Assembly: GCF_013315695.1 (NCBI RefSeq) | Contig: NZ_CP054353.1 | Origin: Escherichia coli | GTDB taxonomy: Bacteria > Pseudomonadota > Gammaproteobacteria > Enterobacterales > Enterobacteriaceae | Length of the DNA stretch: 64,000 nucleotides | Direction: 5' to 3' (one strand) | In this document: piece by piece, positions 1 to 42,533 of the stretch | Layout: every line of letters begins with the position of its first letter | How positions within the stretch are numbered: the stretch's first letter is position 1 | Notes under the pieces: generated by a model | What the model was told of the DNA's origin: nothing | Database searches by the model: none | The model's input: the letters and a program-made list of their open reading frames with translations, nothing else | Made by a program: the position numbers and the translations under genes

Positions 1-2205
1 GCGCAAAAGCGCGGCCTGAAAGTCGGCAAGCAGCTGACTTTCGCCACCATGACATTTGCAGGCGACACACCGCAGCTGGCGAACGTCAAAGCGGTGGATG
101 ATATCTACCCGATGTATGGCGATCTGCAAACCAATCCCCCAGGCCTGAAACCGCAGGCGGGCAGCGTATTGCTGGCCCCACGCCTGATGGCACTGCTTAA
201 CCTGAAAACGGGCGACACCATTGACGTGGGCGATGCCACCTTGCGGATTGCCGGAGAAGTGATTCAGGAACCGGATTCCGGTTTTAACCCCTTCCAGATG
301 GCTCCGCGTCTGATGATGAATCTGGCGGATGTCGATAAAACCGGAGCCGTGCAGCCGGGGAGTCGGGTCACCTGGCGTTATAAATTCGGCGGCAACGAGA
401 ACCAGCTCGACGGCTATGAGAAATGGTTGTTACCCCAGCTTAAACCCGAACAACGCTGGTACGGTCTGGAACAGGACGAAGGCGCGCTGGGGCGATCGAT
501 AGAACGTTCGCAACAGTTCCTGCTGCTTTCGGCGCTTCTGACCTTGCTGCTGGCGGTGGCGGCGGTCGCGGTGGCGATGAATCATTACTGTCGCAGTCGC
601 TACGATCTGATGGCGATCCTCAAAACGCTGGGAGCAGGGCGAGCGCAATTGCGTAAGTTAATCGTCGGTCAGTGGTTGATGGTGCTGGTACTTTCAGCCG
701 TTACCGGCGGGGCTATAGGTCTGTTGTTCGAAAACGTGTTGATGATGCTGCTCAAACCCGTGCTACCTGCCGCTTTACCTCCTGCCAGCCTCTGGCCGTG
801 GCTGTGGGCGCTCGGCACCATGACAGTCATCTCGCTGCTGGTGGGGCTGCGACCATACCGCCTGTTGTTGGCAACGCAGCCTTTACGCGTGTTACGTAAT
901 GATGTGGTTGCAAACGTCTGGCCGCTGAAGTTTTATCTGCCGATTGTCAGTGTGGTGGTTGTGTTACTGCTCGCCGGACTGATGGGCGGCAGTATGCTGC
1001 TCTGGGCGGTGCTGGCGGGCGCGGTAGTACTGGCTTTGCTGTGCGGTGTCCTGGGCTGGATGCTGCTGAATGTACTTCGCCGCATGACGCTGAAATCGCT
1101 GCCTCTGCGCCTGGCGGTTAGCCGCCTGTTACGTCAGCCGTGGTCAACGTTAAGCCAGCTTTCGGCATTTTCGCTCTCCTTTATGCTGCTGGCACTGCTG
1201 CTGGTGTTGCATGGCGATCTGCTCGACCGCTGGCAGCAGCAGCTACCGCCAGAAAGCCCGAACTACTTTTTAATTAACATCGCCACAGAACAGGTAGCAC
1301 CGCTAAAAGCGTTCCTCGCGGAACATCAGATAGTCCCGGAATCGTTTTATCCGGTGGTGCGGGCGAGACTGACGGCGATTAACGGCAAGCCGACAGAAGG
1401 CAATGAAGATGAGGCGCTCAATCGCGAACTCAATCTTACCTGGCAAAATACGCGGCCCGATCATAATCCGATTGTCGCCGGTAACTGGCCGCCAAAAGCC
1501 GATGAAGTGTCGATGGAAGAGGGGCTGGCGAAACGCTTAAACGTTGCCCTCGGTGATACCGTGACTTTTATGGGCGATACCCAGGAGTTCCGCGCTAAAG
1601 TGACCAGCCTGCGCAAAGTGGACTGGGAAAGTCTGCGGCCTAATTTCTATTTTATTTTCCCTGAAGGGGCATTAGACGGGCAACCGCAGAGCTGGCTTAC
1701 CAGTTTCCGCTGGGAGAATGGCAACGGCATGTTGACGCAACTCAACCGCCAGTTCCCTACCATTAGCCTGTTAGACATTGGCGCGATTTTAAAACAGGTC
1801 GGTCAGGTGCTGGAGCAGGTAAGTCGGGCGCTGGAAGTGATGGTAGTGCTGGTCACTGCCTGCGGTATGTTGCTGTTGCTGGCACAGGTGCAGGTGGGAA
1901 TGCGTCAGCGTCATCAGGAGCTGGTGGTGTGGCGCACACTCGGTGCGGGCAAAAAACTGCTGCGCACGACATTGTGGTGTGAGTTCGCCATGCTCGGGTT
2001 TGTTTCTGGCCTGGTGGCCGCAATTGGTGCGGAAACGGCACTGGCAGTGTTGCAGGCGAAAGTGTTTGATTTCCCGTGGGAGCCAGACTGGCGATTGTGG
2101 ATTGTGCTGCCGTGCAGCGGTGCACTGCTGCTGTCGCTTTGCGGCGGCTGGCTGGGTGCGCGACTGGTTAAGGGTAAGGCGCTGTTCAGGCAGTTTGTGG
2201 GGTGA
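1..2205 (+). CDS. ybbP: FtsX-like ABC transporter permease, N-terminus outside window
   Basis: Reading frame is open from base 1 (listed ORF 49..2205); multiple hydrophobic TM segments; gene-order context upstream of selU. Confidence 0.75.
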   Translation, partial: AQKRGLKVGKQLTFATMTFAGDTPQLANVKAVDDIYPMYGDLQTNPPGLKPQAGSVLLAPRLMALLNLKTGDTIDVGDATLRIAGEVIQEPDSGFNPFQMAPRLMMNLADVDKTGAVQPGSRVTWRYKFGGNENQLDGYEKWLLPQLKPEQRWYGLEQDEGALGRSIERSQQFLLLSALLTLLLAVAAVAVAMNHYCRSRYDLMAILKTLGAGRAQLRKLIVGQWLMVLVLSAVTGGAIGLLFENVLMMLLKPVLPAALPPASLWPWLWALGTMTVISLLVGLRPYRLLLATQPLRVLRNDVVANVWPLKFYLPIVSVVVVLLLAGLMGGSMLLWAVLAGAVVLALLCGVLGWMLLNVLRRMTLKSLPLRLAVSRLLRQPWSTLSQLSAFSLSFMLLALLLVLHGDLLDRWQQQLPPESPNYFLINIATEQVAPLKAFLAEHQIVPESFYPVVRARLTAINGKPTEGNEDEALNRELNLTWQNTRPDHNPIVAGNWPPKADEVSMEEGLAKRLNVALGDTVTFMGDTQEFRAKVTSLRKVDWESLRPNFYFIFPEGALDGQPQSWLTSFRWENGNGMLTQLNRQFPTISLLDIGAILKQVGQVLEQVSRALEVMVVLVTACGMLLLLAQVQVGMRQRHQELVVWRTLGAGKKLLRTTLWCEFAMLGFVSGLVAAIGAETALAVLQAKVFDFPWEPDWRLWIVLPCSGALLLSLCGGWLGARLVKGKALFRQFVG

Positions 2206-2212
2206 TGACAGT

Positions 2213-2440
2213 CGTTAGATTGCCTGATGCGCTACGCTTATCAGGCCTACGAGGATCGTGCAATATATTGATTTTGCAAGATTGTGTAGGCCGGATAAGG
2301 CGTTTACGCCGCATCTGGCAGTTGTGCGCCGATGCCAGATGCGACGCAGGCGCGTCTTATCATGCCTACGAAACAGCACTCACCTGTAGGCTGGATAAGG
2401 CGTTCACGCCGCATCCGGCATGAACAGCGTGCACAGAATC
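2213..2440. repeat. REP/BIME-like palindromic repeat cluster
   Basis: Repeated GCCGGATAAGGCGTT(T/C)ACGCCGCATC(C/T)GGCA and GATGCG..CTTATCAGGCCTAC motifs in the intergenic region. Confidence 0.7.
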
Positions 2441-2445
2441 CCCCA

Positions 2446-3555
<1,110 letters not shown>

Positions 3556-3608
3556 TCAAATCAGCTTGCGCGCTATTTTACGCGCCAACGCGCAAGGAAA
3601 CTTGATTT

Positions 3609-4535
3609 TTAACTGCGTGGGTTGCCGAAAATTTCTAAAAATCCGCTGATTTCCGGCCTGCGTTGGGTAAACAAGGTCACAATATCTTCTACCGCTTTGC
3701 CGCTGCCAAATTTGCGCCATGCCAGACTCAATGGCGAAGGAGGGCGCATCGTTGGGATTACCCGGCTGACCAGTTGTTGATTATCGATCATTGACTGGCA
3801 AAGTGATTTTGGCAAAAAACCAATGCCAACGCCCGCCAGATGGGCGGCGATTTTCGTTTCCATATCAGGAACAATAATCTCTTTTTGCCCTGGCAATCGC
3901 CAGGCGACGCGTTTGGTTAAGGTGCGGGCGCTGTCTTCAATATTGACCGCCGGAAAGCGCCGCAACTGCGCTTCTGTTAGCGGCTCTTCAACGTTCGCCA
4001 GCGGATGATCCGCCGCCATGACAAAGCGCCATTGCACCGATCCTAAGGGATCAAGACTAAAGGTATTTGCCAGCGCCTCGGTTCCCGTGACGCCGATAGC
4101 CAGTGAAAAACCTTCGTATAATAGCGAATCCCAGACGCCCATATAGATTTGTCGGGAGATGTGAAACTGGGTAAAGGGGTAACGTTCATTCAGCCACGCC
4201 AGCAGTTGGGCGACGGCCTGGGGGTTATAGAGCAGGTTGTTGATGACAATATTTACCTGGCGTTCCACGCCATCATTCACCTGTTGCAGCTCGCTGGGCA
4301 TACTTTCCAGCCAGCTCAGCCAGTCTCTGGCCTGGGAAAGTAGATGCTCGCCAGCCGCTGTCAACGTCACGCTGCGAGTCGTGCGGAAAAAGAGCGCTAC
4401 TCCGGTATTCTCTTCCAGAAGTTTAATGCGATAACTGATCGTCGCCGTGGTTTTACATAATCGTTCTGCCGCTTTTGAAAAACTTCCTGTTTCAGCAACC
4501 GCAATGAAAGTCCGCAAGGTTTCTGGATCGAACAT
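3609..4535 (-). CDS. allS: LysR-family transcriptional activator of allantoin genes
   Basis: 308 aa; N-terminal LysR HTH; divergent from allA. Confidence 0.8.
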
Positions 4536-12873: not shown

Positions 12874-14181
12874 GTGTTTATGTTCAATTTTGCAGTCAGC
12901 CGCGAAAGCCTGTTATCAGGATTTCAGTGGTTTTTCTTTATTTTTTGCAACACTGTTGTGGTTCCTCCTACGCTACTTTCTGCTTTTCAGTTGCCGCAAA
13001 GTAGCCTGCTTACGCTCACGCAATATGCTTTTCTTGCTACCGCACTGGCCTGCTTCGCTCAGGCGTTCTGCGGTCATCGCCGCGCTATTATGGAAGGGCC
13101 GGGTGGCCTGTGGTGGGGAACCATCCTGACTATCACCCTTGGCGAAGCATCGCGCGGGACACCGATCAACGATATCGCTACCAGTCTGGCGGTGGGGATT
13201 GCGCTCTCCGGCGTGCTGACGATGTTGATTGGTTTTAGCGGATTAGGCCATCGTCTGGCACGGTTATTTACGCCGTCGGTGATGGTCTTGTTTATGTTGA
13301 TGCTGGGTGCGCAACTGACCACTATCTTTTTCAAAGGTATGCTCGGGCTGCCGTTTGGCATAGCCGACCCGAATTTTAAAATTCAGTTACCGCCGTTCGC
13401 GCTCTCGGTGGCGGTGATGTGCCTGGTACTGGCGATGATTATCTTCCTGCCGCAACGTTTTGCCCGTTATGGCCTGCTGGTCGGTACGATAACCGGCTGG
13501 TTGTTGTGGTACTTTTGCTTTCCTTCTTCGCATTCGCTCTCCGGTGAGTTGCACTGGCAGTGGTTCCCGCTCGGCAGTGGCGGTGCTTTGTCGCCGGGGA
13601 TTATTCTGACGGCGGTGATTACAGGTCTGGTAAATATCAGCAATACCTACGGTGCGATTCGTGGCACGGATGTTTTTTATCCGCAACAGGGCGCGGGGAA
13701 TACGCGTTATCGTCGCAGCTTTGTGGCGACCGGATTTATGACGCTGATAACCGTGCCGCTGGCGGTAATTCCATTTTCACCGTTTGTTTCATCCATTGGT
13801 TTATTAACCCAGACTGGCGATTACACGCGACGATCGTTTATTTATGGCAGCGTTATTTGCCTGCTGGTGGCACTGGTTCCGGCACTCACACGACTGTTTT
13901 GCAGTATCCCTTTACCGGTGAGTAGCGCGGTCATGCTGGTTTCTTATCTGCCTTTACTCTTTTCCGCGCTGGTGTTTAGCCAGCAAATCACGTTTACCGC
14001 TCGCAATATTTATCGACTCGCATTGCCGTTATTTGTCGGCATATTTTTAATGGCATTACCGCCTGTGTATCTGCAAGACCTTCCATTAACGCTTCGTCCT
14101 CTGCTCAGTAACGGCTTACTGGTCGGAATTTTACTGGCTGTTCTTATGGATAATCTTATTCCGTGGGAACGCATCGAATAA
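12874..14181 (+). CDS. ybbY: putative purine/uracil-family permease
   Basis: 435 aa membrane protein; context. Confidence 0.7.
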   Translation: MFMFNFAVSRESLLSGFQWFFFIFCNTVVVPPTLLSAFQLPQSSLLTLTQYAFLATALACFAQAFCGHRRAIMEGPGGLWWGTILTITLGEASRGTPINDIATSLAVGIALSGVLTMLIGFSGLGHRLARLFTPSVMVLFMLMLGAQLTTIFFKGMLGLPFGIADPNFKIQLPPFALSVAVMCLVLAMIIFLPQRFARYGLLVGTITGWLLWYFCFPSSHSLSGELHWQWFPLGSGGALSPGIILTAVITGLVNISNTYGAIRGTDVFYPQQGAGNTRYRRSFVATGFMTLITVPLAVIPFSPFVSSIGLLTQTGDYTRRSFIYGSVICLLVALVPALTRLFCSIPLPVSSAVMLVSYLPLLFSALVFSQQITFTARNIYRLALPLFVGIFLMALPPVYLQDLPLTLRPLLSNGLLVGILLAVLMDNLIPWERIE

Positions 14182-14202
14182 TTTGTTGAAAAAGGATTGA
14201 TA

Positions 14203-15345
14203 ATGAAAATTGTCATTGCGCCAGACTCGTTTAAAGAGAGCTTAAGTGCAGAAAAATGTTGTCAGGCAATTAAAGCCGGGTTTTCGACCCTCTTTCCCGA
14301 TGCGCACTATATCTGTTTGCCGATAGCGGATGGCGGCGAAGGAACGGTGGATGCGATGGTCGCCGCGACGGGCGGCAACATCGTGACGCTTGAAGTCTGC
14401 GGGCCGATGGGCGAAACAGTGAATGCTTTTTATGGCCTTACCGGCGACGGGAAAACGGCGGTGATTGAGATGGCTGCGGCAAGCGGCCTGATGCTGGTCG
14501 CGCCTGAAAAGCGTAATCCGTTGCTGGCCTCCAGTTTTGGTACGGGGGAGTTAATTCGCCATGCGCTGGATAACGGCATTCGCCATATTATTCTCGGCAT
14601 TGGCGGCAGTGCGACGGTCGACGGCGGTATGGGCATGGCGCAGGCGCTCGGTGTGCGTTTCCTTGATGCCGACGGTCAGGTGCTGGCGGCTAACGGCGGC
14701 AATTTAGCGCGCGTGGCAAGCATTGAGATGAATGAATGCGATCCGCGTCTGGCGAACTGTCATATTGAAGTCGCATGTGACGTTGATAACCCGCTGGTAG
14801 GGGCACGCGGCGCGGCGGCGGTGTTTGGCCCGCAAAAAGGGGCAACGCCGGAGATGGTCGAAGAACTGGAACAGGGGCTGCAAAATTACGCCCGTGTTTT
14901 ACAACAGCTAACTGAAATCAACGTCTGCCAGATGGCGGGCGGTGGCGCGGCGGGCGGTATGGGCATTGCGGCGGAGGTATTCCTCAATGCGGATATTAAA
15001 CCGGGTATTGAGATTGTGTTGAATGCGGTCAATCTTGCGCAGGCGGTGCAGGGTGCAGCACTGGTGATCACCGGGGAAGGGCGCATCGATTCGCAAACGG
15101 CAGGTGGTAAAGCGCCGCTGGGCGTGGCGTCGGTGGCGAAGCAGTTTAATGTCCCGGTGATTGGGATTGCTGGCGTATTGGGTGATGGCGTGGAAGTGGT
15201 GCACCAGTACGGCATTGACGCGGTGTTCAGCATTTTGCCACGTCTGGCACCTTTAGCCGAAGTGCTCGCCAGCGGTGAAACCAATCTCTTCAACAGCGCA
15301 CGAAATATTGCCTGCGCCGGTGATGCTGCCAACTTACTGATTTAG
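14203..15345 (+). CDS. glxK: glycerate kinase; last codons and stop lie inside the IS1 left inverted repeat
   Basis: About 380 aa; ORF continues across the IS1 boundary at 15319 (…[10 protein letters not shown]). Confidence 0.75.
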
Positions 15346-15373
15346 TGTATGATGGTGTTTTTGAGGTGCTCCA

Positions 15374-15649
15374 GTGGCTTCTGTTTCTATCAGCTGTCCC
15401 TCCTGTTCAGCTACTGACGGGGTGGTGCGTAACGGCAAAAGCACCGCCGGACATCAGCGCTATCTCTGCTCTCACTGCCGTAAAACATGGCAACTGCAGT
15501 TCACTTACACCGCTTCTCAACCCGGTACGCACCAGAAAATCATTGATATGGCCATGAATGGCGTTGGATGCCGGGCAACAGCCCGCATTATGGGCGTTGG
15601 CCTCAACACGATTTTACGTCACTTAAAAAACTCAGGCCGCAGTCGGTAA
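15374..15649 (+). CDS. insA: IS1 InsA
   Basis: 91 aa zinc-finger/HTH protein, identical in both copies. Confidence 0.9.
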
Positions 15650-16071
15650 CCTCGCGCATACAGCCGGGCAGTGACGTCATCGTCTGCGCGGAAATGGACG
15701 AACAGTGGGGCTATGTCGGGGCTAAATCGCGCCAGCGCTGGCTGTTTTACGCGTATGACAGGCTCCGGAAGACGGTTGTTGCGCACGTATTCGGTGAACG
15801 CACTATGGCGACGCTGGGGCGTCTTATGAGCCTGCTGTCACCCTTTGACGTGGTGATATGGATGACGGATGGCTGGCCGCTGTATGAATCCCGCCTGAAG
15901 GGAAAGCTGCACGTAATCAGCAAGCGATATACGCAGCGAATTGAGCGGCATAACCTGAATCTGAGGCAGCACCTGGCACGGCTGGGACGGAAGTCGCTGT
16001 CGTTCTCAAAATCGGTGGAGCTGCATGACAAAGTCATCGGGCATTATCTGAACATAAAACACTATCAATAA
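15568..16071 (+). CDS. insB: IS1 InsB (transposase C-part, made as InsAB' by -1 frameshift)
   Basis: 167 aa ORF overlapping insA in the -1 frame. Confidence 0.85.
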
Positions 16072-16086
16072 GTTGGAGTCATTACC

Positions 16087-17618
16087 TAGATACCACAGGT
16101 TTCTGGCATGACGATTTTAATAACGCCACGCCGAACGATATTTGCGTGGCAATTCGTAGCGAAGCGGCGGATGCGGGGATCGCGCAGGCGGTTATGCAGC
16201 AGCTTGAAGAGGCGCTAAAACAACTGGCGCAGGGTTCAGGCAGCAGCCAGGCGTTGACGCAGGTGCGTCGCTGGGACAGTGCCTGTCAGAAATTACCCGA
16301 TGCCAGTCTGGCGCTGATTTCAGTGGCTGGTGAGTATGCGGCGGAGCTGGCGAACCAGGCGCTGGATCGCAACCTCAACGTGATGATGTTCTCCGATAAC
16401 GTCACGCTGGAAGATGAAATCCAACTTAAAACCCGCGCGCGGGAAAAAGGCTTGCTGGTGATGGGGCCGGACTGCGGTACATCGATGATTGCCGCCACGC
16501 CGCTGGCTTTTGCTAACGTGATGCCGGAAGGCAACATTGGCGTCATTGGCGCTTCCGGTACCGGGATTCAGGAGCTGTGCTCACAGATTGCGCTGGCAGG
16601 GGAGGGAATTACTCATGCGATTGGCCTTGGCGGGCGCGACCTCAGCCGTGAAGTGGGCGGCATCAGTGCGCTGACGGCGCTGGAAATGCTCAGTGCAGAC
16701 GAGAAAAGCGAAGTGCTGGCATTTGTTTCAAAACCACCTGCCGAAGCTGTGCGTCTGAAAATTGTTAATGCCATGAAAGCAACTGGCAAACCGACGGTGG
16801 CGCTGTTTTTAGGTTATACCCCGGCGGTGGCCCGCGACGAGAATGTCTGGTTTGCCTCCTCGCTGGATGAGGCCGCACGCCTGGCTTGTCTGCTTTCACG
16901 CGTCACTGCGCGACGTAACGCGATAGCGCCTGTCAGCAGCGGATTTATTTGCGGTTTGTATACCGGCGGTACGCTGGCTGCTGAAGCTGCGGGATTACTT
17001 GCCGGACACCTTGGCGTGGAAGCCGACGATACCCATCAACATGGCATGATGCTCGACGCCGACGGACATCAGATCCTCGACCTGGGCGATGATTTTTACA
17101 CCGTCGGGCGTCCCCATCCGATGATCGACCCGACCTTACGCAACCTGTTAATTGCCGATCTCGGCGCTAAACCGCAAGTGCGAGTGTTGCTGCTTGATGT
17201 GGTGATTGGCTTCGGTGCGACCGCCGATCCTGCCGCCTCGCTGGTGAGCGCCTGGCAAAAAGCCTGTGCCGCGCGTTCAGACAATCAACCACTGTATGCC
17301 ATTGCCACGGTGACAGGCACTGAACGTGACCCGCAATGCCGCTCGCAGCAAATCGCCACGCTGGAAGATGCGGGGATCGCGGTAGTGAGTTCGCTACCGG
17401 AAGCCACCTTGCTGGCTGCGGCGTTAATTCATCCGCTCTCGCCTGCCACACAGCAACACACACCGTCATTACTGGAAAACGTCGCCGTGATTAACATCGG
17501 ATTACGCAGCTTTGCGCTGGAGCTACAAAGCGCCAGCAAACCGGTTGTGCATTACCAATGGTCGCCAGTCGCCGGTGGCAATAAAAAACTGGCTCGTTTA
17601 TTAGAACGTTTGCAATAA
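16087..17618 (+). pseudogene. fdrA: fdrA-like acyl-CoA synthetase-family gene, 5' end removed by IS1
   Basis: Frame is open right up to the IS1 end with no start codon and no promoter; the listed ORF starts at an internal GTG (16146). Confidence 0.7.
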
Positions 17619-33796: not shown

Positions 33797-34037
33797 AGTT
33801 ACCAGTCTCATTGGATCGGACAATTTTCCGTTAGGGCGGGAAATTGTACTTGATACATGAAAATACGGGTTTTCTTGATTCAGACGCGCAGCGGTGTGCG
33901 TTTGTTTGCCGCTATAACGAAATAAATCAGAAAATCAGACGCGGTCGTTCACTTGTTCAGCAACCAGATCAAAAGCCATTGACTCAGCAAGGGTTGACCG
34001 TATAATTCACGCGATTACACCGCATTGCGGTATCAAC

Positions 34038-34114
34038 GCGCCCTTAGCTCAGTTGGATAGAGCAACGACCTTCTAAGTCGTGGGCCGCAGGTTCGAATCC
34101 TGCAGGGCGCGCCA
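34038..34114 (+). tRNA. argU: tRNA-Arg (anticodon TCT in CTTCTAAG loop)
   Basis: GCGCCCTTAGCTCAGTTGGATAGAGC…GGTTCGAATCC…GCGCGCCA cloverleaf elements; integrase immediately downstream. Confidence 0.9.
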
Positions 34115-34129
34115 TTACAATTCAATCAG

Positions 34130-35293
34130 TTACGCCTTCTTTATATCCTCCATAATTCCACAGTGGGACATATTTGGGACATTATCACCAAAAATGTCGT
34201 CTATTTTCCTTGCATGCTCTGTCAAATGATTAGGCGCAAGGTGAGCATACCTACGAACCATTTCTATGGACTCCCATCCGCCCATTTCCTGAAGCACAGA
34301 TAATGGGACGCCTGACTGGATCAGCCAGCTTGCCCAGGTGTGTCTGAGGTCATGGAAACGGAAATCTTCAATTCCTGCACGACGACAAGCTGATAGCCAT
34401 GATGTCTTGCTGTCGATGCGCATCTTCCTGACCGCAGGCGTTGATGTTCCATCTGCTCGCTTAGTCGCCTTGGTATGTACAAACACCCATTTGTGATGCT
34501 TGCCTATTTGATCACGCAACACTTTACAGGCGGTATCGTTCAGCGCCACACCAATGGCGCGGTTTGATTTGCTCTCTTCTGGATTCACCCAGGCAACTCG
34601 TCGCTGCATGTCGATTTGTTGCCATTCCAGATTTATGATGTTCGACTTTCTCAGACCAGTTGCCAGCGCAAACTTGACGACAGATTTCAGTGGTTCGGGG
34701 CACTCATCAATAAGGCGTTTTGCTTCCTCCTTTTCCAGCCATCTGACTCGCTTGTTTCTGACCGCTGGTATCTTGATGACAGGCGCTTTTTCCAGCCACT
34801 TCCAGTCGCGTTCTGCAGCACGGAGAATGGCCTTTATCATGGCAAGATGCTTTGCCTTTGTCTGAGTTGATACTGGCTTTGGTTCATAAACAGGCGGTTC
34901 TTTACCTTTCCTGATGGCGGCCTGAACTTTCTGTTTCCATATTTCTTTCGTCTTTCTGTTATGCATTCTGCTTACAGCAGAGTAAATCTTTGCCTCCGAG
35001 ATATCTTTAAGCCTTATACCCTCAAAATGTTCAAGCCAGAACTCAATCCGGCTTTTATCTGAATCGAGAGATTTTTTATCAGCTTTTTCCTCAAGCCATC
35101 TTAGGCAGGCCTCTTCAAAAGTGACATCAGGTAAATCCCCTAGCTTTTCTACTCGCCAGAGTTCTGCTTTTCGCTTGTCGTGCAACTCCTGAGCTTGCCG
35201 CTTGTCCTTTGTGCCAAGAGATTCCTTAATTCGTTTCCCGCCCGGGAGCGAATACGAGGCATACCATATTTCATTTCTGCGGAAGAGTGACAT
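34130..35293 (-). CDS. intD: prophage tyrosine integrase (DLP12-type, argU-specific)
   Basis: 387 aa; C-terminal R..HxxR..Y catalytic region ([10 protein letters not shown]… ; …RRYAHL). Confidence 0.88.
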
Positions 35294-35523
35294 TTTCTTT
35301 CCTCTGTTATGCCATCACCCGCGCTCACCTGGACAGTATGCAGCGGAGACTGAAGCGCCGCAATGCAAGCTTGCCGTGTTGTGAGGTAAGGAGATTTTGG
35401 CTTGGTTGGATCTTTACGTGTTGCCTGTAGGCGGCCTGTTCGTATCCAGTTGGTGGCGGTTGGTCTGGATATCTTAAGAAACTGACAGGCCTCATCGAGT
35501 GTGAGGCTGTATGGCTCCATTAT
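35149..35523 (-). CDS. AlpA/Xis-like excisionase/DNA-binding protein (overlaps int 5' end; start uncertain)
   Basis: [34 protein letters not shown] typical of AlpA-family excisionases. Confidence 0.55.
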
Positions 35524-35825
35524 TTCACCTCTTGCTGTGTCATTGTTGAAAAATGGATACCAGCTCGTTGCTGCCAGACGATCCAACCGAGAGTCATATC
35601 CCATGCCATGTATTCGTTATCGCCGTTTTTTACTCTCCGACGATCTACTAAGTCACCGAAACGCTTTTCCATGAATAATTCATAGGCTTCGCGTTCATCT
35701 GGCTCTACTTCCAGAGATACGAGTGCGATTTCATAAGCACGGCGCTCAATATCGTCTCGAACCTCTAGGCTGCTGATTCGTTCTTTGATTTCTTTAATCA
35801 GTTCTTTATTGGTAAATGTGGTCAT
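35520..35825 (-). CDS. hypothetical prophage early-left protein (101 aa)
   Basis: Translationally coupled (overlapping start/stop) in the int-xis operon. Confidence 0.45.
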   Translation of the reverse strand: MTTFTNKELIKEIKERISSLEVRDDIERRAYEIALVSLEVEPDEREAYELFMEKRFGDLVDRRRVKNGDNEYMAWDMTLGWIVWQQRAGIHFSTMTQQEVK

Positions 35826-36187
35826 TATGCTCCAGCCTCCGGTGCTTTTGGCATTACTGCCCAGTGAGTGATATTGACGTTTTCAAGGTCCCCGACCTGA
35901 AATGTCCACTGCCATTCTCCGGTTTCTTTTTGTCCCCAGGTGTACCAGAGAGAACGCCAGCCAATCAGCCAGCCTTCTCCATTAGCATCAAATAACAGAA
36001 CACTTTCATTTGCTGGTGGCAGTTCAGCTGACACTGGTATTATTTTGTTTTCCAGTGCCGCACATTTAGCTTCAAGCGCGTCGAATTTACGTAACAGGTA
36101 CTCAGCATTTGTTTCATTCACTTTCAGATCTCGCGGTACACATTTCCCGCGAAGAAACCCTTCCATTTCGAAAACATTCATGCGCAT
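35825..36187 (-). CDS. DUF551-like prophage protein (120 aa)
   Basis: Trp-rich C-terminus ending …THWAVMPKAPE; coupled to neighbours. Confidence 0.45.
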   Translation of the reverse strand: MRMNVFEMEGFLRGKCVPRDLKVNETNAEYLLRKFDALEAKCAALENKIIPVSAELPPANESVLLFDANGEGWLIGWRSLWYTWGQKETGEWQWTFQVGDLENVNITHWAVMPKAPEAGA

Positions 36188-36741
36188 TTGCGTAACTCCG
36201 ATAAATCGTTAAAACGTTCCATAAACATCCCGTAGGCATGACCCGGTGCCAGTGGAATCACGTTGAACATCTCTGTTGCCGGGATGCCTTCCAGTACAGG
36301 CCAGAAAGAGCCATCATCAAGCCCGAGATCGCGGCGTTCGGTTGCCAGCATGATGAGATCGGCATATTTCACGGGTGTACTCATAACTGGGGGTAACCCG
36401 TATTTCTCACGGATTACGGCGTCTATTTTTTCTTCCATCCGTTTATAGTCAGGAAGAAGGCGTTTCAGTGGTGCGGGAATGTCCTGGCAATACGCTTCTG
36501 TTGCATCATGCATTAACGCTTCAAAAGCAAATTCCTGCGGCACCAGCTGGCTGCAAAGAACCGCATGTTGGGCGACGCTGTAGAAGTGCGAAAGATGACC
36601 GGCAAAGCGACAGATATTTGAAAGGGAAACCGCGATATCGTTAATATCGATGTCGTCTTTATTTATCTTGTCATAATAAAAATGCTTCCCGGAAAAAGTT
36701 TTAATAAATGACATTTTGTTCTCCACGTATATGCACTGCAC
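36178..36741 (-). CDS. HD-domain phosphohydrolase (YfbR-like 5'-nucleotidase family)
   Basis: H…HD metal-binding signature (…SVAQHAVL… ; …ALMHDATEAY…). Confidence 0.6.
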   Translation of the reverse strand: MQCIYVENKMSFIKTFSGKHFYYDKINKDDIDINDIAVSLSNICRFAGHLSHFYSVAQHAVLCSQLVPQEFAFEALMHDATEAYCQDIPAPLKRLLPDYKRMEEKIDAVIREKYGLPPVMSTPVKYADLIMLATERRDLGLDDGSFWPVLEGIPATEMFNVIPLAPGHAYGMFMERFNDLSELRKCA

Positions 36742-36839
36742 CGCGCTGAATTCTGGTAAAAGGAAGCCCTCACCATCCGGTGATTATTGAGTTAATTACG
36801 TTTCCATAAATGCCCCCGCAGGGGCATTTGCAGTAATGA

Positions 36840-37041
36840 AATCAGGCGGTGAAAGTACCAATAAAGGTTTCTACTTTGCTGTCTTTGAATTTCTCAACAA
36901 GCAGATCACGAAATTCGTTAGCCATTTCTTCCTGCACCGCTTCCAGCTGAATAATGCGCAGAACCAGTACAGGACGATCGCCAGTGATAATGCTGAGGCG
37001 TAATTTAAACGGACGTTCTTTCAGACCTTCAAACGGAACGC
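36840..37041 (-). pseudogene. 3' fragment of a prophage early gene, truncated by IS1
   Basis: Minus-strand frame open from the IS1 boundary to a stop at 36840 (…[39 protein letters not shown]); no start codon. Confidence 0.45.
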
Positions 37042-37096
37042 GGTGATGCTGCCAACTTACTGATTTAGTGTATGATGGTGTTTTTGAGGTGCTCCA

Positions 37097-37372
37097 GTGG
37101 CTTCTGTTTCTATCAGCTGTCCCTCCTGTTCAGCTACTGACGGGGTGGTGCGTAACGGCAAAAGCACCGCCGGACATCAGCGCTATCTCTGCTCTCACTG
37201 CCGTAAAACATGGCAACTGCAGTTCACTTACACCGCTTCTCAACCCGGTACGCACCAGAAAATCATTGATATGGCCATGAATGGCGTTGGATGCCGGGCA
37301 ACAGCCCGCATTATGGGCGTTGGCCTCAACACGATTTTACGTCACTTAAAAAACTCAGGCCGCAGTCGGTAA
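37097..37372 (+). CDS. insA: IS1 InsA
   Basis: Identical to 15374..15649. Confidence 0.9.
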
Positions 37373-37794
37373 CCTCGCGCATACAGCCGGGCAGTGACGT
37401 CATCGTCTGCGCGGAAATGGACGAACAGTGGGGCTATGTCGGGGCTAAATCGCGCCAGCGCTGGCTGTTTTACGCGTATGACAGGCTCCGGAAGACGGTT
37501 GTTGCGCACGTATTCGGTGAACGCACTATGGCGACGCTGGGGCGTCTTATGAGCCTGCTGTCACCCTTTGACGTGGTGATATGGATGACGGATGGCTGGC
37601 CGCTGTATGAATCCCGCCTGAAGGGAAAGCTGCACGTAATCAGCAAGCGATATACGCAGCGAATTGAGCGGCATAACCTGAATCTGAGGCAGCACCTGGC
37701 ACGGCTGGGACGGAAGTCGCTGTCGTTCTCAAAATCGGTGGAGCTGCATGACAAAGTCATCGGGCATTATCTGAACATAAAACACTATCAATAA
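37291..37794 (+). CDS. insB: IS1 InsB
   Basis: Identical to 15568..16071. Confidence 0.85.
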
Positions 37795-37850
37795 GTTGGA
37801 GTCATTACCTTCTAATTGATATGCAATTGTTTACTAAAAGTTATTAAAAA

Positions 37851-37868
37851 TGGGGCGTGGAAACGCCC
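37851..37868 (-). terminator. hairpin GGGGCGTGGAAACGCCCC with flanking A/T runs, likely the porin terminator
   Basis: Perfect 7-bp GC stem; on the minus strand it is followed by a T-run. Confidence 0.4.
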
Positions 37869-38007
37869 CCAAAATAAAGGGTAATATATAACAGAAGGTT
37901 TATATAGTAAGAAGCAAGGTAGTGCTTCTAAAGGAAGTGGCTTGAGGGCTCCACTTATATGTTGCGGAGGCAAAGCCTCCCGCAACATATCTTTTTCGTA
38001 AGTCAGA

Positions 38008-39090
38008 TTAGAACTGATAAACCAGACCTACAGCGACGATGTCGTCGGTATCAATACCAGCTGTTTTGGTAAACTTACTATCGTCAATTAAGTTGATTTT
38101 GTAATCAACAAAAGTGGACATGTTTTTATTAAAGTAGTAAGTAGCACCGACATCGACATACTTGACTAAGTCTCGGTCACCATGAACACCAAGGTCTTTA
38201 CCTTTTGACTGAAGGTAAGCAACAGATGGACGCAGACCGAAGTCAAACTGATATTGTGCTACTGCTTCAAAGTTTTGTGCTTTGTTTGCAATATGGTTAT
38301 TACCAAAAACGGTCATATTCTGAGTTTCAGAATATGTGGTAGCCAGATAGATATTGTTCGCATCATATTTCAGGCCTGCAGCCCATACTTCCGCATTTTT
38401 GCCGGAGGCATTGAATTTGCTCTTACCATAGGCGACCTGACCGTCAGTGCGATCTGATTTAGCATAGGTTGCACCCACGCCGAATCCTTCATACTCATAA
38501 GTAGTGGAGAAACCGAAACCATCACCATTGGCTTCAGTTACGTCAGTGCGGTCATTTTTACCCTGATACTGAGCAGCAAAGTTCAGGCCATCGACCAGAC
38601 CAAAGAAGTCGTTGTTACGATAAGTTGCAACACCAGTAGTGCGACCAGTCATGAACACATCTGTTTGGGTCCAGGTATCACCACCGAATTCTGGCAGGAC
38701 GTCAGTCCACGCACCGATGTCGTATGCTACACCGTAGTTACGGCCGTAATCGATTGAGCCGTAATCACCAAATTTCAGGCCTGCAAATGCAAGACGGGTT
38801 TTGTCTTTGGAAGAACCTTGAGATTCAGCACGGTTGCCTTTGAATTCATATTCCCACTGACCGAAACCAGTCAGTTGATCGTTGATTTGGGTTTCACCTT
38901 TGAAGCCAAGACGGGCATAAGTAGTATCACCATCATCTGCATCATTAGAGGAGAAGTAGTGCTTGGCATTAACTTTCCCGTATAGATCCAGCTTGTTACT
39001 GTCTTTATTATAAATTTCAGCTGCCTGAGCAGACATCGCCATCAGTACTGATGCAGCTACAGCAGAAATTGCCACTGTTAATTTTTTCAT
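38008..39090 (-). CDS. nmpC: prophage-encoded OmpC/OmpF-family porin, apparently intact
   Basis: 360 aa from [23 protein letters not shown] signal peptide; C-terminal …VAVGLVYQF beta-barrel signature. Confidence 0.85.
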
Positions 39091-39516
39091 TGTACGCCCT
39101 TTTTTTGAACTATTATTAAAAAATGATGTCACTGCGCGATAAATATTCATCTAATCAATGCGATTATTTCAAGATGTAAGTTTTAGTTTCTCATTTAATT
39201 TGTGAAGTAGATCTCTATTTTTATCTAAACCTTTTCTATCTAATCCTATTCATGGCTCTTGTTTGAACGAAAATAAATCTATTAGCTAATTTATATTAAT
39301 GGCACTTATTTATAAGCGATCTATAATTCTTTAGCTTAATTTAAACAAGCTAAAAATAACATCGGAAATTATTCATTGGTTATTTGTTGAAGTTTTCTTA
39401 TGTATTTGTGGTGGTGTTTTGAACACTCGGTGGCATTCTCACAAATATCATTTAGTAGTTTACGTACGTAAAAAATTGGTTATGCTGTTAAGAGTGGTTA
39501 CTTCGTCACACAGCTT

Positions 39517-39549
39517 AAACCCGCCGTCGAGCGGGTTTTTCCATTTTTT
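39517..39549 (+). terminator. rho-independent terminator upstream of the holin (tR'-like)
   Basis: AAACCCGC-CGTCGA-GCGGGTTTTTCCATTTTTT; stem-loop plus U tract. Confidence 0.5.
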
Positions 39550-39678
39550 GAGTCTCGATATTAGCTGATAACCCAATACCTGAGTTATTCACTGACTCCG
39601 AATCTGTTACGTTTCTGCCTTTATTGCGATACGTAGTATCCCCTTAATTTACACCCGCTTTGTCTGCGAGGTGGGGTT

Positions 39679-39894
39679 ATGAAATCCATGGATAAGTTAA
39701 CAACGGGTGTCGCCTATGGCACCTCAGCAGGTAGTGCCGGATACTGGTTTTTACAGCTGCTAGATAAAGTCACGCCCTCACAGTGGGCGGCAATTGGAGT
39801 GCTGGGTAGCCTGGTATTTGGCCTGCTGACGTACCTGACAAACCTTTATTTCAAGATTAAAGAAGATAAGCGCAAGGCTGCGAGAGGTGGATAA
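39679..39894 (+). CDS. essD: class II holin (phage-21 S21-like pinholin)
   Basis: 71 aa, two TM segments ([26 protein letters not shown]…), charged C-terminus. Confidence 0.85.
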
Positions 39895-40391
39895 TGCCTC
39901 CATCATTACGAAAAGCTGTTGCTGCTGCTATTGGTGGCGGGGCTATTGCTATAGCATCTGTGTTAATCACTGGCCCAAGTGGTAACGATGGTCTGGAAGG
40001 TGTGAGACATAATCCTTACAAAGACATAGTTGGTGTATGGACTGTATGTTACGGGCATACAGGAAAAGACATCATTCCCGGTAAAACGTATACCGAAGCA
40101 GAGTGCAAAGCCCTCCTGAATAAAGACCTTGCCACTGTCGCCAGACAAATTAACCCGTACATCAAAGTCGATATACCGGAAACAACGCGCGGCGCTCTTT
40201 ACTCGTTCGTCTACAACGTGGGTGCTGGCAATTTCAGAACATCGACGCTTCTTCGCAAAATCAACCAGGGCGATATCAAAGGCGCATGTGACCAGCTACG
40301 TCGCTGGACATACGCTGGCGGTAAGCAATGGAAAGGGCTGATGACTCGCCGTGAGATTGAGCGTGAAGTCTGTTTGTGGGGGCAGCAATGA
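39894..40391 (+). CDS. rrrD: SAR endolysin (T4 lysozyme-type muramidase with N-terminal signal-anchor-release domain)
   Basis: 165 aa; Gly/Ala-rich SAR segment [20 protein letters not shown] followed by lysozyme fold. Confidence 0.85.
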
Positions 40392-40825
40392 GCAGGTTAA
40401 CCGCGATTATCTCCGCTCTGGTTATCTGCATCATCGTCTGTCTGTCATGGGCTGTTAATCATTACCGTGATAACGCCATTACCTATAAAGAACAGCGCGA
40501 TAAAGCCACGTACATCATCGCTGACATGCAGAAGCGTCAACGTGACGTAGCAGAACTCGATGCCAGATATACAAAGGAGCTTGCTGATGCTAACGCGACT
40601 ATCGAAAGTCTCCGTGCTGATGTTTCTGCTGGGCGTAAGCGCCTGCAAGTCGCCGCCACCTGTGCAAAGTCAACGACCGGAGCCAGCGGCATGGGCGATG
40701 GAGAAAGCCCAGGACTTACAGCAGATGCTGAACTCAATTATTACCGTCTCCGAAGTGGAATCGACAAGATAACCGCGCAGGTTAACTACCTGCAGGAATA
40801 CATCAGGACGCAATGCCTGAAATAA
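40376..40825 (+). CDS. rzpD: Rz-like i-spanin
   Basis: 149 aa; N-terminal TM then coiled coil; overlaps endolysin end. Confidence 0.8.
40560..40772 (+). CDS. rzoD: Rz1-like o-spanin lipoprotein embedded in the +1 frame of Rz
   Basis: Lipobox LLGVSAC followed by Pro-rich segment; fully nested in rzpD; true start probably an internal Met. Confidence 0.7.
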
Positions 40826-40886
40826 TTTTTTTGCAAATCACAAAGTCAATTTAATGAGCCTCGCGATGCGGGGCTTTTTGCAATAA

Positions 40887-40911
40887 ATGCGTACCGCAAC
40901 GCATGTTTTTT
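40887..40911 (+). terminator. weak terminator-like hairpin after the spanin genes
   Basis: ATGCGT-ACCGCA-ACGCAT followed by GTTTTTT. Confidence 0.3.
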
Positions 40912-41026
40912 ACACCGAACCTGCCCCTTTGGAATGGGCCTTTGAGGATACCAGTTAGTGCTGGCGAGCCTCGGTGGGCTGGTTTCCTGTGCGGCAAAGG
41001 TTCATTTCAAAGAGTAGGTACACGCT

Positions 41027-41778: not shown

Positions 41779-42263
41779 CCATTACAAAGCCTATCTACGG
41801 GTGGGCTTGATAATGGCTTATACCCTACACGGGATAACTTAACTGATATCCCTTTTAAAGGATAAAGGTATTCAAGCCTGACACATCATGCGCTGTATCG
41901 TCGCCGTGTTCCCGTATTAACAGAGACCGTAGCCCGACGGGGAACTCCTTCTGCGCGAGTGTGCGGGAATAATCAAAAACGATGCACACCGGGGTTACCG
42001 GGTACACATATTTCATCATGCCAGCGAGTCCGGTTCTGGCACGGAAGAAACCGGACGTTATGATTTAGTGCGGAAATATTTGTGTAGTGTTCTGAATGTT
42101 CTCAGTAAAGAGTAATGAATTATCAAAGGTATAGTAATACCTTTTGTTTTCGTGGATATTTGTAATCCATCTGAAAACCCCTGCTGTAGCAAGATTTTTC
42201 CTGTATTCGTAAAATGATAACTCTCCTGATTTGAATCCTTTTAAGGTGGCTTCTATAAGGCAT

Positions 42264-42476
42264 TTATTTTTTTGAAAATCTTACATTTACAACCTTACCC
42301 TGTCCTTTTATTAAAACCGTATTATCGTTTTCAAGAACAAGATGAATATTCTCTGTGGCTAAATAGTAAATGTAATGTGAGACATTGTGACGTTTTAGTT
42401 CAGAATAAAACCAGTGATAGTTTAAATTATTTCGCACTTTATCGAATATTTGTTTAAAAATGGCAACCTGAGCCAT
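42264..42476 (-). CDS. hypothetical small protein (about 70 aa) in an AT-rich island
   Basis: Likely start at the second Met (MAQVAIF…) preceded by GGAAGG; GC content well below surroundings. Confidence 0.4.
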
Positions 42477-42533
42477 TGTAGTACCTTCCATGTGATATGA
42501 GGGGGCGTAGTCTGCACGATTATCTAGATTGCT

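Follow-up and report, generated by a model that had tools for sequence, protein, structure and literature searches.

The three minus-strand genes that precede xis and int in this Escherichia coli prophage are yfdR, yfdS and yfdT, most probably the block of a CPS-53/KplE1/SfV-type exo-xis region left behind as a remnant by an IS1 insertion and a subsequent adjacent deletion, and are now probably silent. We assign this reading a probability of about 80%, on the basis of the protein identities, gene junctions, deletion, IS1 orientation and catalytic residues established here. The gene block itself is a known prophage module, ordinary and already described. All coordinates refer to the window, that is, the whole stretch of 64,000 nucleotides that was analyzed, in which the following features were located:

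34038-34114, plus strand: argU, tRNA-Arg(UCU), the prophage attachment site (DLP12 site, adjoining fimZ), from ARAGORN, the Rfam tRNA model (72 bits) and the annotation of the closest genome
34130-35293, minus strand: int, intD-type tyrosine integrase, 387 aa, from the ORF list
35149-35520, minus strand: xis, P22/SfV-type excisionase, 123 aa, overlapping the yfdT stop by 1 nt and int by 145 nt
35520-35825, minus strand: yfdT, 101 aa, no Pfam domain
35825-36187, minus strand: yfdS, 120 aa, an N-terminal segment of about 49 aa followed by a C-terminal DUF551
36178-36714, minus strand: yfdR, predicted HD-domain 5'-deoxynucleotidase and DnaA-binding protein, 178 aa
36808-36829, minus strand: spacer hairpin with a 9-bp stem, AAAUGCCCC-UGCG-GGGGCAUUU, in the 127-nt yfdQ-yfdR spacer, from RNA folding
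36842-37041, minus strand: yfdQ', startless 3' fragment of yfdQ (DUF2303), the last 65 codons plus stop
37042-37809, plus strand: IS1, 768 bp, IS1A type according to PGAP, delimited by its ORFs, boundaries and flanks
37810-37819, plus strand: quuD remnant, the last 10 nt of the late antiterminator gene, marking the distal limit of the 9,340-bp deletion
37852-37869, minus strand: terminator-like hairpin, GGGGCGT-TTCC-ACGCCCC followed by ATTTTTAATA, following a porin gene and, read along the operon strand, shortly before IS1, from the terminator scan

Gene order and related prophages

The genes yfdR, yfdS and yfdT form a gap-free chain into xis and int, with overlaps of 10, 1, 1 and 145 nt along the series. 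The 10-nt overlap of the yfdR stop with the yfdS start reads ATGCGCATGA, the yfdS/yfdT and yfdT/xis junctions are both TAATG, and a GGAG- or GAGG-type ribosome-binding site is located 6-13 nt 5' of each start codon. A preceding sequence-only reading had described three minus-strand ORFs with overlapping stop and start codons, feeding xis-int as an early-left accessory operon, and in this it was accurate; the region is the distal part of such an operon. The start it had chosen for the first ORF, the in-frame GTG at 36741, was replaced by the ATG at 36714, which is almost certainly correct, being preceded by GGAG and yielding a protein of 178 aa, the length of K-12 YfdR. Judged by their protein identity of 97-99% to K-12 YfdR, YfdS and YfdT, the ORFs are taken to be real genes and not chance frames; pN/pS was 0.03-0.22 in five of six comparisons with SfV and K-12, with small counts. 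At least 80% of this 2-kb segment was found in 1,089 of 5,426 complete E. coli genomes (about a fifth).

Xis matches phrog_2907 (excisionase, E=1.1e-45) with residues 1-116 against positions 2-117 of the 117-position profile, scores 27.7 bits on TIGR01764, and is identical to SfV Xis at 93 of 116 positions (80%). The gene is full length, although PGAP/RefSeq annotates a pseudogene fragment of 21-22 codons. For int, which is called intD by PGAP in MSB1_4I and AF3, identity is 99-100% in phages PhiR49_1 and Kati. An Rfam search over 33800-39700 returned tRNA as the only RNA family.

The K-12 prophage CPS-53 (KplE1) carries the same yfd genes in the same order and with the same overlaps at their junctions (yfdP-Q-R-S-T, then torI), and both clusters are placed immediately upstream of the prophage excisionase gene. 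The excisionase is of the P22/SfV type here and TorI in K-12; int follows directly here, whereas intS is at the other end of the K-12 prophage; integration is at argU here and at argW in K-12; and yfdQ is cut to its last 65 codons by IS1 in the window. The same module is present in SfV (orf31-orf28 with xis and int; also in SfII and SfIV), PhiR49_1, PhiR29 and Kati. SfV has orf32-28 ahead of xis and int, and cI and two annotated terminators lie upstream of these genes. From int through yfdQ', nucleotide identity is 100% to PhiR49_1 and 99.1% to Kati, both of which are recorded with E. coli hosts and carry the module downstream of cI/cro; identity to SfV is 93%, from yfdQ' through the 5' part of int. 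As complete phage genomes carry it (SfV, PhiR49_1 and Kati, all three inducible), the module belongs to live temperate phages. These phages retain an uncut yfdQ together with yfdP, the immunity region and Q, all of which are lost in the window.

The same position in the pL operon, from the recombination/immunity genes to xis, is occupied by the lambda exo-xis region (ea22, ea8.5, orf60a and neighbours) and by the Ea22 variants of Stx phages, and small mosaic accessory proteins are encoded in the lambda region and the yfd block alike. YfdS shares its DUF551 domain with Ea22 variant V2 (PMC10834534). The lambda region differs in gene content and contains no homologue of YfdR or YfdT.

YfdR, YfdS and YfdT

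YfdR aligns with K-12 YfdR without gaps over its full length and is identical at 177 of 178 positions, with V23D as the sole substitution; PGAP names the identical protein, WP_000008165.1, yfdR. Profile and structure-database searches gave matches to phrog_318 ('deoxyribonucleoside 5' monophosphate phosphatase', E=5e-110), the Pfam family YfbR-like (E=5e-5) and the HD protein of PDB 2GZ4 (E=3.7e-14). The HD signature consists of R36-F37, H50, H69-D70, E73, D78 and D119, which correspond to R18-W19, H33, H68-D69, E72, D77 and D137 of YfbR, respectively. H69-D70, E73 and D78 were placed by alignment to their YfbR counterparts, and R36-F37, H50 and D119 by motif inspection together with the Atu1052/PDB 2GZ4 alignment, because MAFFT mis-registered this part against YfbR. 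The first ORF had been read as an HD-domain nucleotidase, with absence of the catalytic His/Asp residues named as what would speak against it; on alignment these residues are intact, in agreement with that assignment.

The prototype of this pattern is E. coli YfbR, a dCMP phosphohydrolase/5'-deoxynucleotidase, with which YfdR shares the HD metal-binding and catalytic residues and, in a local alignment, 33% identity over 40 residues around H-D-A-x-E-x(4)-D-x-P. Although akin to YfbR in fold and active site, YfdR was rejected as its equivalog or orthologue: on NCBIfam NF003009, for which the curated cut-off is 122 bits, it scores 19.9, over residues 41-98 only. A role in hydrolyzing signalling nucleotides (cyclic or oligonucleotide second messengers), with a function in phage defence or counter-defence, had also been considered for the HD protein. 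Some HD-domain enzymes are cyclic-nucleotide phosphodiesterases, and yfdR is located in the accessory region of a phage genome. However, the pocket residues fit the dNMP-specific YfbR pattern (R-W/F, then HD...E....D), the 177/178-identical K-12 YfdR is annotated and described as a 5'-deoxynucleotidase, and a search of PADLOC-DB with YfdR, YfdS, YfdT and the YfdQ fragment gave no match at E<=0.01, which leaves the signalling role without support and extremely improbable.

For enzymatic activity, DnaA binding and gene requirements we rely on the literature. K-12 YfdR is a 5'-deoxynucleotidase in annotation and literature (PMC4776307), described as an HD-domain enzyme that binds DnaA (Noguchi and Katayama, 2016, PMC4776307); binding is to DnaA domain I around Phe46, in competition with DiaA and DnaB (PMC4776307). 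Unlike YfbR, it has a much lower affinity for nucleotides (Zimmerman et al., 2008, cited in PMC4776307) in addition to its DnaA-binding activity (PMC4776307). For the V23D copy in the window, dNMP phosphatase activity and binding of DnaA domain I, both known for the K-12 protein, are predicted.

YfdS is identical to K-12 YfdS at 119 of 120 positions and matches phrog_583 over its full length (E=3.9e-82). Residues 50-117 constitute DUF551 (Pfam PF04448, model positions 3-68 of 68, E=4.9e-4), while the N-terminal residues 1-49 alone match phrog_614 and phrog_14548 and represent a segment common to other phage proteins. YfdT is identical to K-12 YfdT at 98 of 101 positions over its full length and matches phrog_660 (E=1e-30); searches of Pfam and of PDB sequences returned no family and no entry for it, and for YfdS the PDB search gave only insignificant matches to designed coiled coils (residues 29-56). 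Single-sequence AlphaFold2 models, with a mean pLDDT of 42 for YfdS and of 62 for YfdT (below 50 in its C-terminal third), were too poor for fold searches. The earlier DUF551 call for the second ORF stands on the PF04448 match, whereas the statement that the second and third ORFs have no assigned function is outdated, these being yfdS and yfdT, of the yfdR-yfdS-yfdT set for which biochemistry and genetics have been published (PMC4776307, PMC3105296).

In multicopy, yfdQ and yfdR together with either yfdS or yfdT inhibit initiation at oriC (Noguchi and Katayama, 2016, PMC4776307); each member of this set is needed, and a plasmid lacking yfdQ fails to suppress hda-185 (PMC4776307). The same authors state that the overexpression phenotype may be an artefact, and deletion of yfdQRST had no replication phenotype (PMC4776307). 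This minimal inhibitor set is incomplete in the window, where only residues 210-274 of YfdQ are encoded. A literature search yielded nothing usable on Rho-dependent control of KplE1 excision, nor a paper on PhiR49_1.

IS1 insertion, adjacent deletion and expression

The yfdQ' fragment is identical to residues 210-274 of YfdQ at 64 of 65 positions, with the junction at nt 626 of yfdQ. The adjoining IS1 has the terminal inverted repeats GGTGATGCTGCCAACTTA (IRL) and GGTAATGACTCCAACTTA (IRR), and its insA/insB genes are on the plus strand (37097-37794), divergent from the yfd genes. The window sequence reads ...ACGGAACGC at one flank of the element and TTCTAATTG... at the other, with no 9-bp target-site duplication. 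The same prophage is present in isolate AF3; there IS1 occupies the identical site and has the 9-bp duplication ACGGAACGC on either side. Window positions 33900-37809 correspond to positions 114-4023 of the AF3 locus (L005), and window positions 37810-41000 align to 13364-16555, with quuD ending at 13373. Compared with AF3 and PhiR49_1, 9,340 bp adjoining IS1 are missing from the window; by the AF3 annotation they run from the 5' part of yfdQ to quuD and include the repressor gene, cro and the genes for replication.

The missing target duplication in the window and its presence in AF3 fit a secondary IS1 adjacent deletion, and by sequence comparison the 9,340-bp loss is read as such: one IS1 end is fixed, the DNA at the other end is gone and the target duplication is lost, with nothing unusual for IS1-mediated events of this kind. 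Since the deletion took the immunity, replication and Q functions, the prophage is defective. That the upstream gene was truncated by IS1, and that the native pL-type promoter region was lost, had both been anticipated; the deletion supports the latter, having taken cI/cro through to quuD. Separately, the same window contains a second example of an IS1 adjacent deletion, at 15319-16086; relative to E. coli MSB1_4I (47 mismatches in 26 kb), a further 3.7 kb beside this second IS1 are absent.

The order of events would have been an entry of IS1 into yfdQ at nt 626, followed by the adjacent deletion. Codons 1-209 of yfdQ would have gone with it, as would yfdP, the early promoters together with the cI/cro immunity region, the genes for replication and quuD, whereas yfdR, yfdS, yfdT, xis and int were left with intact reading frames.

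It had been suggested that transcription passing through IS1, or starting in it, still drives the operon. The yfdQ fragment lies immediately next to IS1, an outward-facing TTGGCA at 37055-37050 in the IRL end is a possible -35 element, and IS1 ends reportedly can form hybrid promoters. Against this, the -10 candidates 16-18 nt past TTGGCA are TTTGAA, TTGAAG and TGAAGG, none of which has A2/T6. insA and insB are on the plus strand and are therefore transcribed away from the minus-strand operon, so that the IS1 promoter itself fires away from the yfd genes. The next minus-strand gene upstream, the porin gene, ends in the strong hairpin at 37869-37852, which would stop its transcripts short of IS1; IS1 is classically, and strongly, polar in both orientations; and a further hairpin stands between yfdQ' and yfdR. 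The latter hairpin (36808-36829) is terminator-like but has no proper U tract and was not called by the terminator scan, and the fold of the yfdQ-yfdR spacer as a whole is not significant (z=-1.8).

A scan of the minus strand from 34000 to 39700 for sigma-70-like promoters found none, although a consensus scan may miss weak or non-sigma-70 promoters. With lenient settings over 36690-37130, the best match reached 9/12 and lacked A2/T6 of the -10 hexamer; a weak candidate, TTTATG-16-AATAAT, is located at 36810-36783 in the yfdQ-yfdR spacer. As insAB runs the other way, a terminator precedes IS1 and none of the promoter candidates that face the genes is good, we regard IS1-dependent expression as improbable.

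Probable function in the intact phage and probable fate of the remnant

The block lies at the distal end of the early operon that a lambdoid prophage, integrated here at argU, transcribes leftward. In the intact phage, induction or infection would lead to transcription of yfdP-yfdQ-yfdR-yfdS-yfdT-xis-int from a repressor-controlled pL-type promoter downstream of cI, as a single unit with translational coupling. YfdR would act as a metal-dependent HD phosphohydrolase on 2'-deoxynucleoside 5'-monophosphates, with low affinity, and together with YfdQ and either YfdS or YfdT would damp initiation at oriC. For the phage life cycle we infer that the module checks host replication early, and perhaps also dNMP pools, during phage excision and replication.

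In the window, the remnant of yfdR, yfdS, yfdT, xis and int has no evident promoter and no YfdQ partner; most likely its expression is very weak or absent, and the published replication-inhibition phenotype would no longer be possible. The intact frames of all five genes point either to a recent deletion or to genes still under selection. A weak internal promoter might keep yfdR, yfdS and yfdT useful as a domesticated host asset, for example in oxidative-stress tolerance or dNMP housekeeping. This would explain the intact frames as well as the recurrent IS1 truncations just upstream, and is consistent with a pN/pS mostly below 0.25, the weak -10-like AATAAT at 36788-36783, the lowered H2O2 survival of a K-12 yfdS deletion (PMC3105296), and three independent IS1 junctions that fall in a 24-nt span of yfdQ, share one orientation and leave yfdR through int in place. 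Such junctions were found in only 6 of 5,426 genomes, however, and there is therefore no sign of a sweep; their clustering may just reflect target preference; and the signal of purifying selection is explained equally well by selection in active phages, because the identical sequence occurs in PhiR49_1. Domestication is thus an unlikely account of the locus. Considerably less probable still is the stronger proposition that the recurrent IS1 truncation of yfdQ is itself selected domestication, with an IS1 end or the yfdQ-yfdR spacer as a new promoter; if it were true, YfdR, YfdS and YfdT, freed of YfdQ and of phage repression, would be expressed for host benefit, in stress tolerance or in the tuning of DnaA.

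The locus lacks yfdQ and gives no particular access to what YfdS, YfdT and YfdQ do biochemically, and barring transcript evidence to the contrary IS1-driven expression need not be considered further. Its genes are named and have been studied in K-12, and E. coli prophages and SfV-like phages commonly carry the module, so that the locus matters little beyond correct annotation, where the gain is the naming of the HD gene as yfdR, with its start at 36714, and of xis as a full-length gene.

Gene order and identities of the yfd chain

The minus strand between 34130 and 37041 is an unbroken series of reading frames, with a GGAG/GAGG-type ribosome-binding site ahead of every start codon.

Features of the chain and the adjoining IS1
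37042-37809, IS1, 768 bp
37097-37372, plus strand, insA
37291-37794, plus strand, insB
36842-37041, minus strand, 3' fragment of yfdQ (yfdQ'), 65 codons and stop
36178-36714, minus strand, HD-domain gene (yfdR), 178 aa
35825-36187, minus strand, DUF551 gene (yfdS), 120 aa
35520-35825, minus strand, third ORF (yfdT), 101 aa
35149-35520, minus strand, xis, 123 aa
34130-35293, minus strand, int, 387 aa
34038-34114, tRNA-Arg(UCU) gene argU, beyond int

The three ORFs running into xis-int, as described in the sequence-only reading, are present with their frames and overlapping junctions: a spacer of 127 nt separates yfdQ' from yfdR, the yfdR/yfdS junction (ATGCGCATGA) overlaps by 10 nt, those of yfdS/yfdT and yfdT/xis (both TAATG) by 1 nt each, and xis and int overlap by 145 nt. 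Its coordinates hold overall, except for the 5' end of the HD ORF, placed at an in-frame GTG (36741); this is an unlikely start, and ATG 36714, with GGAG 8-11 nt upstream, fits better, yielding 178 aa, the length of known YfdR.

Identity to the proteins of the K-12 cryptic prophage CPS-53/KplE1 is 177/178 for YfdR, 119/120 for YfdS and 98/101 for YfdT, and 64/65 for the upstream fragment against YfdQ residues 210-274; the same yfd names are used in the RefSeq annotation of the two nearest genomes. DUF551 covers YfdS residues 50-117, and a Pfam search with YfdT returned no family. The 123-aa xis frame is unbroken, matches excisionase family phrog_2907 over the whole profile (E=1e-45) and is 80% identical to Xis of phage SfV, from which its C-terminal ~35 residues diverge exactly at the overlap with a different int.

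In profile searches, YfdR matched phrog_318, 'deoxyribonucleoside 5' monophosphate phosphatase' (E=5e-110), and Pfam YfbR-like/HD_3; it also matched HD protein Atu1052 (PDB 2GZ4, E=3.7e-14). Residues H69-D70, E73 and D78 align with YfbR H68-D69, E72 and D77, and R36-F37, H50 and D119 correspond to YfbR R18-W19, H33 and D137 by motif inspection and the 2GZ4 alignment. The predicted catalytic set is thus complete: the HD motif claimed for the first ORF has all its residues, and the absence that was to speak against it was therefore not observed. YfdR scored 19.9 bits on NF003009 (cut-off 122) and was rejected as a YfbR orthologue. Hydrolysis of signalling nucleotides is considered improbable.

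YfdS and YfdT (35828-36187 and 35523-35825) resemble two-module mosaics. Taken by themselves, the initial ~50 residues of YfdS match N-termini in phrog_614 and phrog_14548, and those of YfdT N-termini in phrog_5117, phrog_3323 and phrog_60; the C-terminal parts match other families, a layout recalling the portable-domain architecture of Ea22 (PMC10834534).

For xis (35149-35520), RefSeq/PGAP gives only a 21-22-codon 'helix-turn-helix, incomplete' pseudogene; the record of phage Kati carries a 56-aa ORF there, equivalent to an other-frame ORF in the window (35325-35495).

Distribution and conservation

At least 80% of the 2-kb segment extending from yfdQ' as far as the start of int was found in 1,089 of the 5,426 complete E. 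coli genomes. From int through yfdQ', phage PhiR49_1 is 100% identical to the window, PhiR29_1 and PhiR29_2 99.6% and Kati 99.1%; SfV, SfII and SfIV share 92-93% identity with it between yfdQ' and the 5' part of int. When SfV and K-12 were compared, five of the six pN/pS values fell at 0.03-0.22, on small counts. The genes yfdR, yfdS and yfdT are genuine and conserved phage genes. No complete genome in the collection is identical to the window; the nearest, MSB1_4I (NZ_LR898874.1, 99.8-100% identity), differs by 47 mismatches in 26 kb and a 3.7-kb difference.

IS1 insertion and adjacent deletion

The gene upstream of the HD ORF is indeed cut by IS1, yfdQ' adjoining the element at yfdQ nt 626. 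In AF3 (NZ_OZ547117.1), an isolate with a near-complete copy of the same argU prophage, IS1 lies at the same point, flanked by a 9-bp duplication (ACGGAACGC), and from fimZ to the far IS1 end the two differ by one mismatch. Past IS1 the window skips 9,340 bp of AF3 and resumes in the last 10 nt of quuD (37810-37819; three codons including the stop). The lost block comprises codons 1-209 of yfdQ, yfdP, the ymfK (cI-type) repressor, a cro-type gene, ymfL, an O-like replication gene, a Dam methylase, rusA and quuD. Since one IS1 end is fixed, contiguous DNA is missing beside the other, and the target duplication is absent at 37042-37809, this is an IS1 adjacent deletion; its IS1-porin junction occurs in only one complete genome of the collection, MSB1_4I. 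Because the block held the repressor, early promoters, replication genes and late antiterminator quuD, the prophage is defective. Lysis, head and tail genes are still present, and with quuD reduced to 10 nt the downstream lysis and structural genes are left without their activator.

Between IS1 and the essD-rrrD-Rz lysis cassette lies an intact OmpC/NmpC-type porin gene (38008-39150; PGAP 'porin OmpC', 360 aa); its K-12 counterpart in DLP12, nmpC, is interrupted by IS5. Downstream of the cassette, a DUF1398 gene (~42066-42477) is annotated as frameshifted in MSB1_4I and intact in AF3.

IS1 adjoins the 3' part of yfdQ (window 36842-37060) in only 6 of the 5,426 complete E. coli genomes (loci L005, L011, L012), at three independent junctions that all fall in a stretch of 24 nt and in identical orientation: nt 626 (window, MSB1_4I, AF3), nt 637 (23AR0998, prophage at the thrW site) and nt 649 (ZJ3920 and two APEC strains). 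Always kept are yfdR, a small adjacent ORF or xis-type gene, and int, as are yfdS-yfdT wherever the prophage has them. The clustering possibly marks a hot spot for IS1, or else an event under selection. MSB1_4I and AF3 each contain at least 40 IS1-matching pieces, so the lineage is IS1-rich. At a second, 100% identical IS1 (15319-16086), likewise without target duplication, another adjacent deletion has removed part of the allantoin pathway: relative to MSB1_4I, 3,724 bp directly beside it are gone (allE, allC, allD and ~136 nt from the start of fdrA).

Expression and known function

In SfV and PhiR49_1 the operon sits downstream of cI with annotated terminators, a lambda-like layout; this region is deleted here, in agreement with the proposed loss of a native pL-type promoter. 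The accompanying proposal, expression by IS1 read-through, was not upheld. As insA and insB are on the plus strand, the element's own promoter faces away from the yfd genes; a strong terminator-like hairpin (37869-37852) stands just before IS1 at the end of the porin gene, the nearest upstream minus-strand gene; and IS1 is classically polar in both orientations. A consensus scan of 34000-39700 yielded no minus-strand promoter, and a lenient scan of 36690-37130 gave at best 9/12 matches, lacking key -10 positions. Behind an outward-facing TTGGCA in the IS1 end there are only poor candidates for a -10 element, and the yfdQ-yfdR spacer holds a weak promoter-like TTTATG-16-AATAAT; expression driven from IS1 is rated unlikely. 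A spacer hairpin (36808-36829; 9-bp stem AAAUGCCCC/GGGGCAUUU, no clear U tract) could be a weak terminator requiring antitermination or a 3'-end stabiliser of yfdQ mRNA. We infer that the yfd block is silent or weakly expressed.

The module has already been described (PMC4776307, PMC3105296, PMC10834534). In multicopy, yfdQRST suppresses hda-185 over-initiation and, in wild-type cells, inhibits initiation at oriC, the minimal set being yfdQ together with yfdR plus yfdS or yfdT; deletion of the cluster has no replication phenotype, and restraint of host replication was proposed as the ancestral phage role, with mention of SfV homologues (Noguchi and Katayama, 2016, PMC4776307). YfdR is a YfbR homologue of the HD type whose affinity for nucleotides is much lower (Zimmerman et al., 2008, as cited in PMC4776307), yfdS deletion reduces H2O2 survival (Wang et al., 2010, PMC3105296), and DUF551 is counted among the portable domains at the C-termini of exo-xis-region proteins (PMC10834534). 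PADLOC defence models gave no matches.

In the intact phage, the yfd block is the last part of the early-left operon and is expressed together with xis and int; YfdR, which has dNMP phosphatase activity and binds domain I of DnaA, would together with YfdQ and YfdS or YfdT hold back host initiation. Here yfdQ has been destroyed and the promoter is gone, and the known phenotype cannot arise. A domesticated low-level function is considered unlikely. The finding is real, ordinary and already known, and the yfd genes of the window are best read as a recent remnant that still looks intact.
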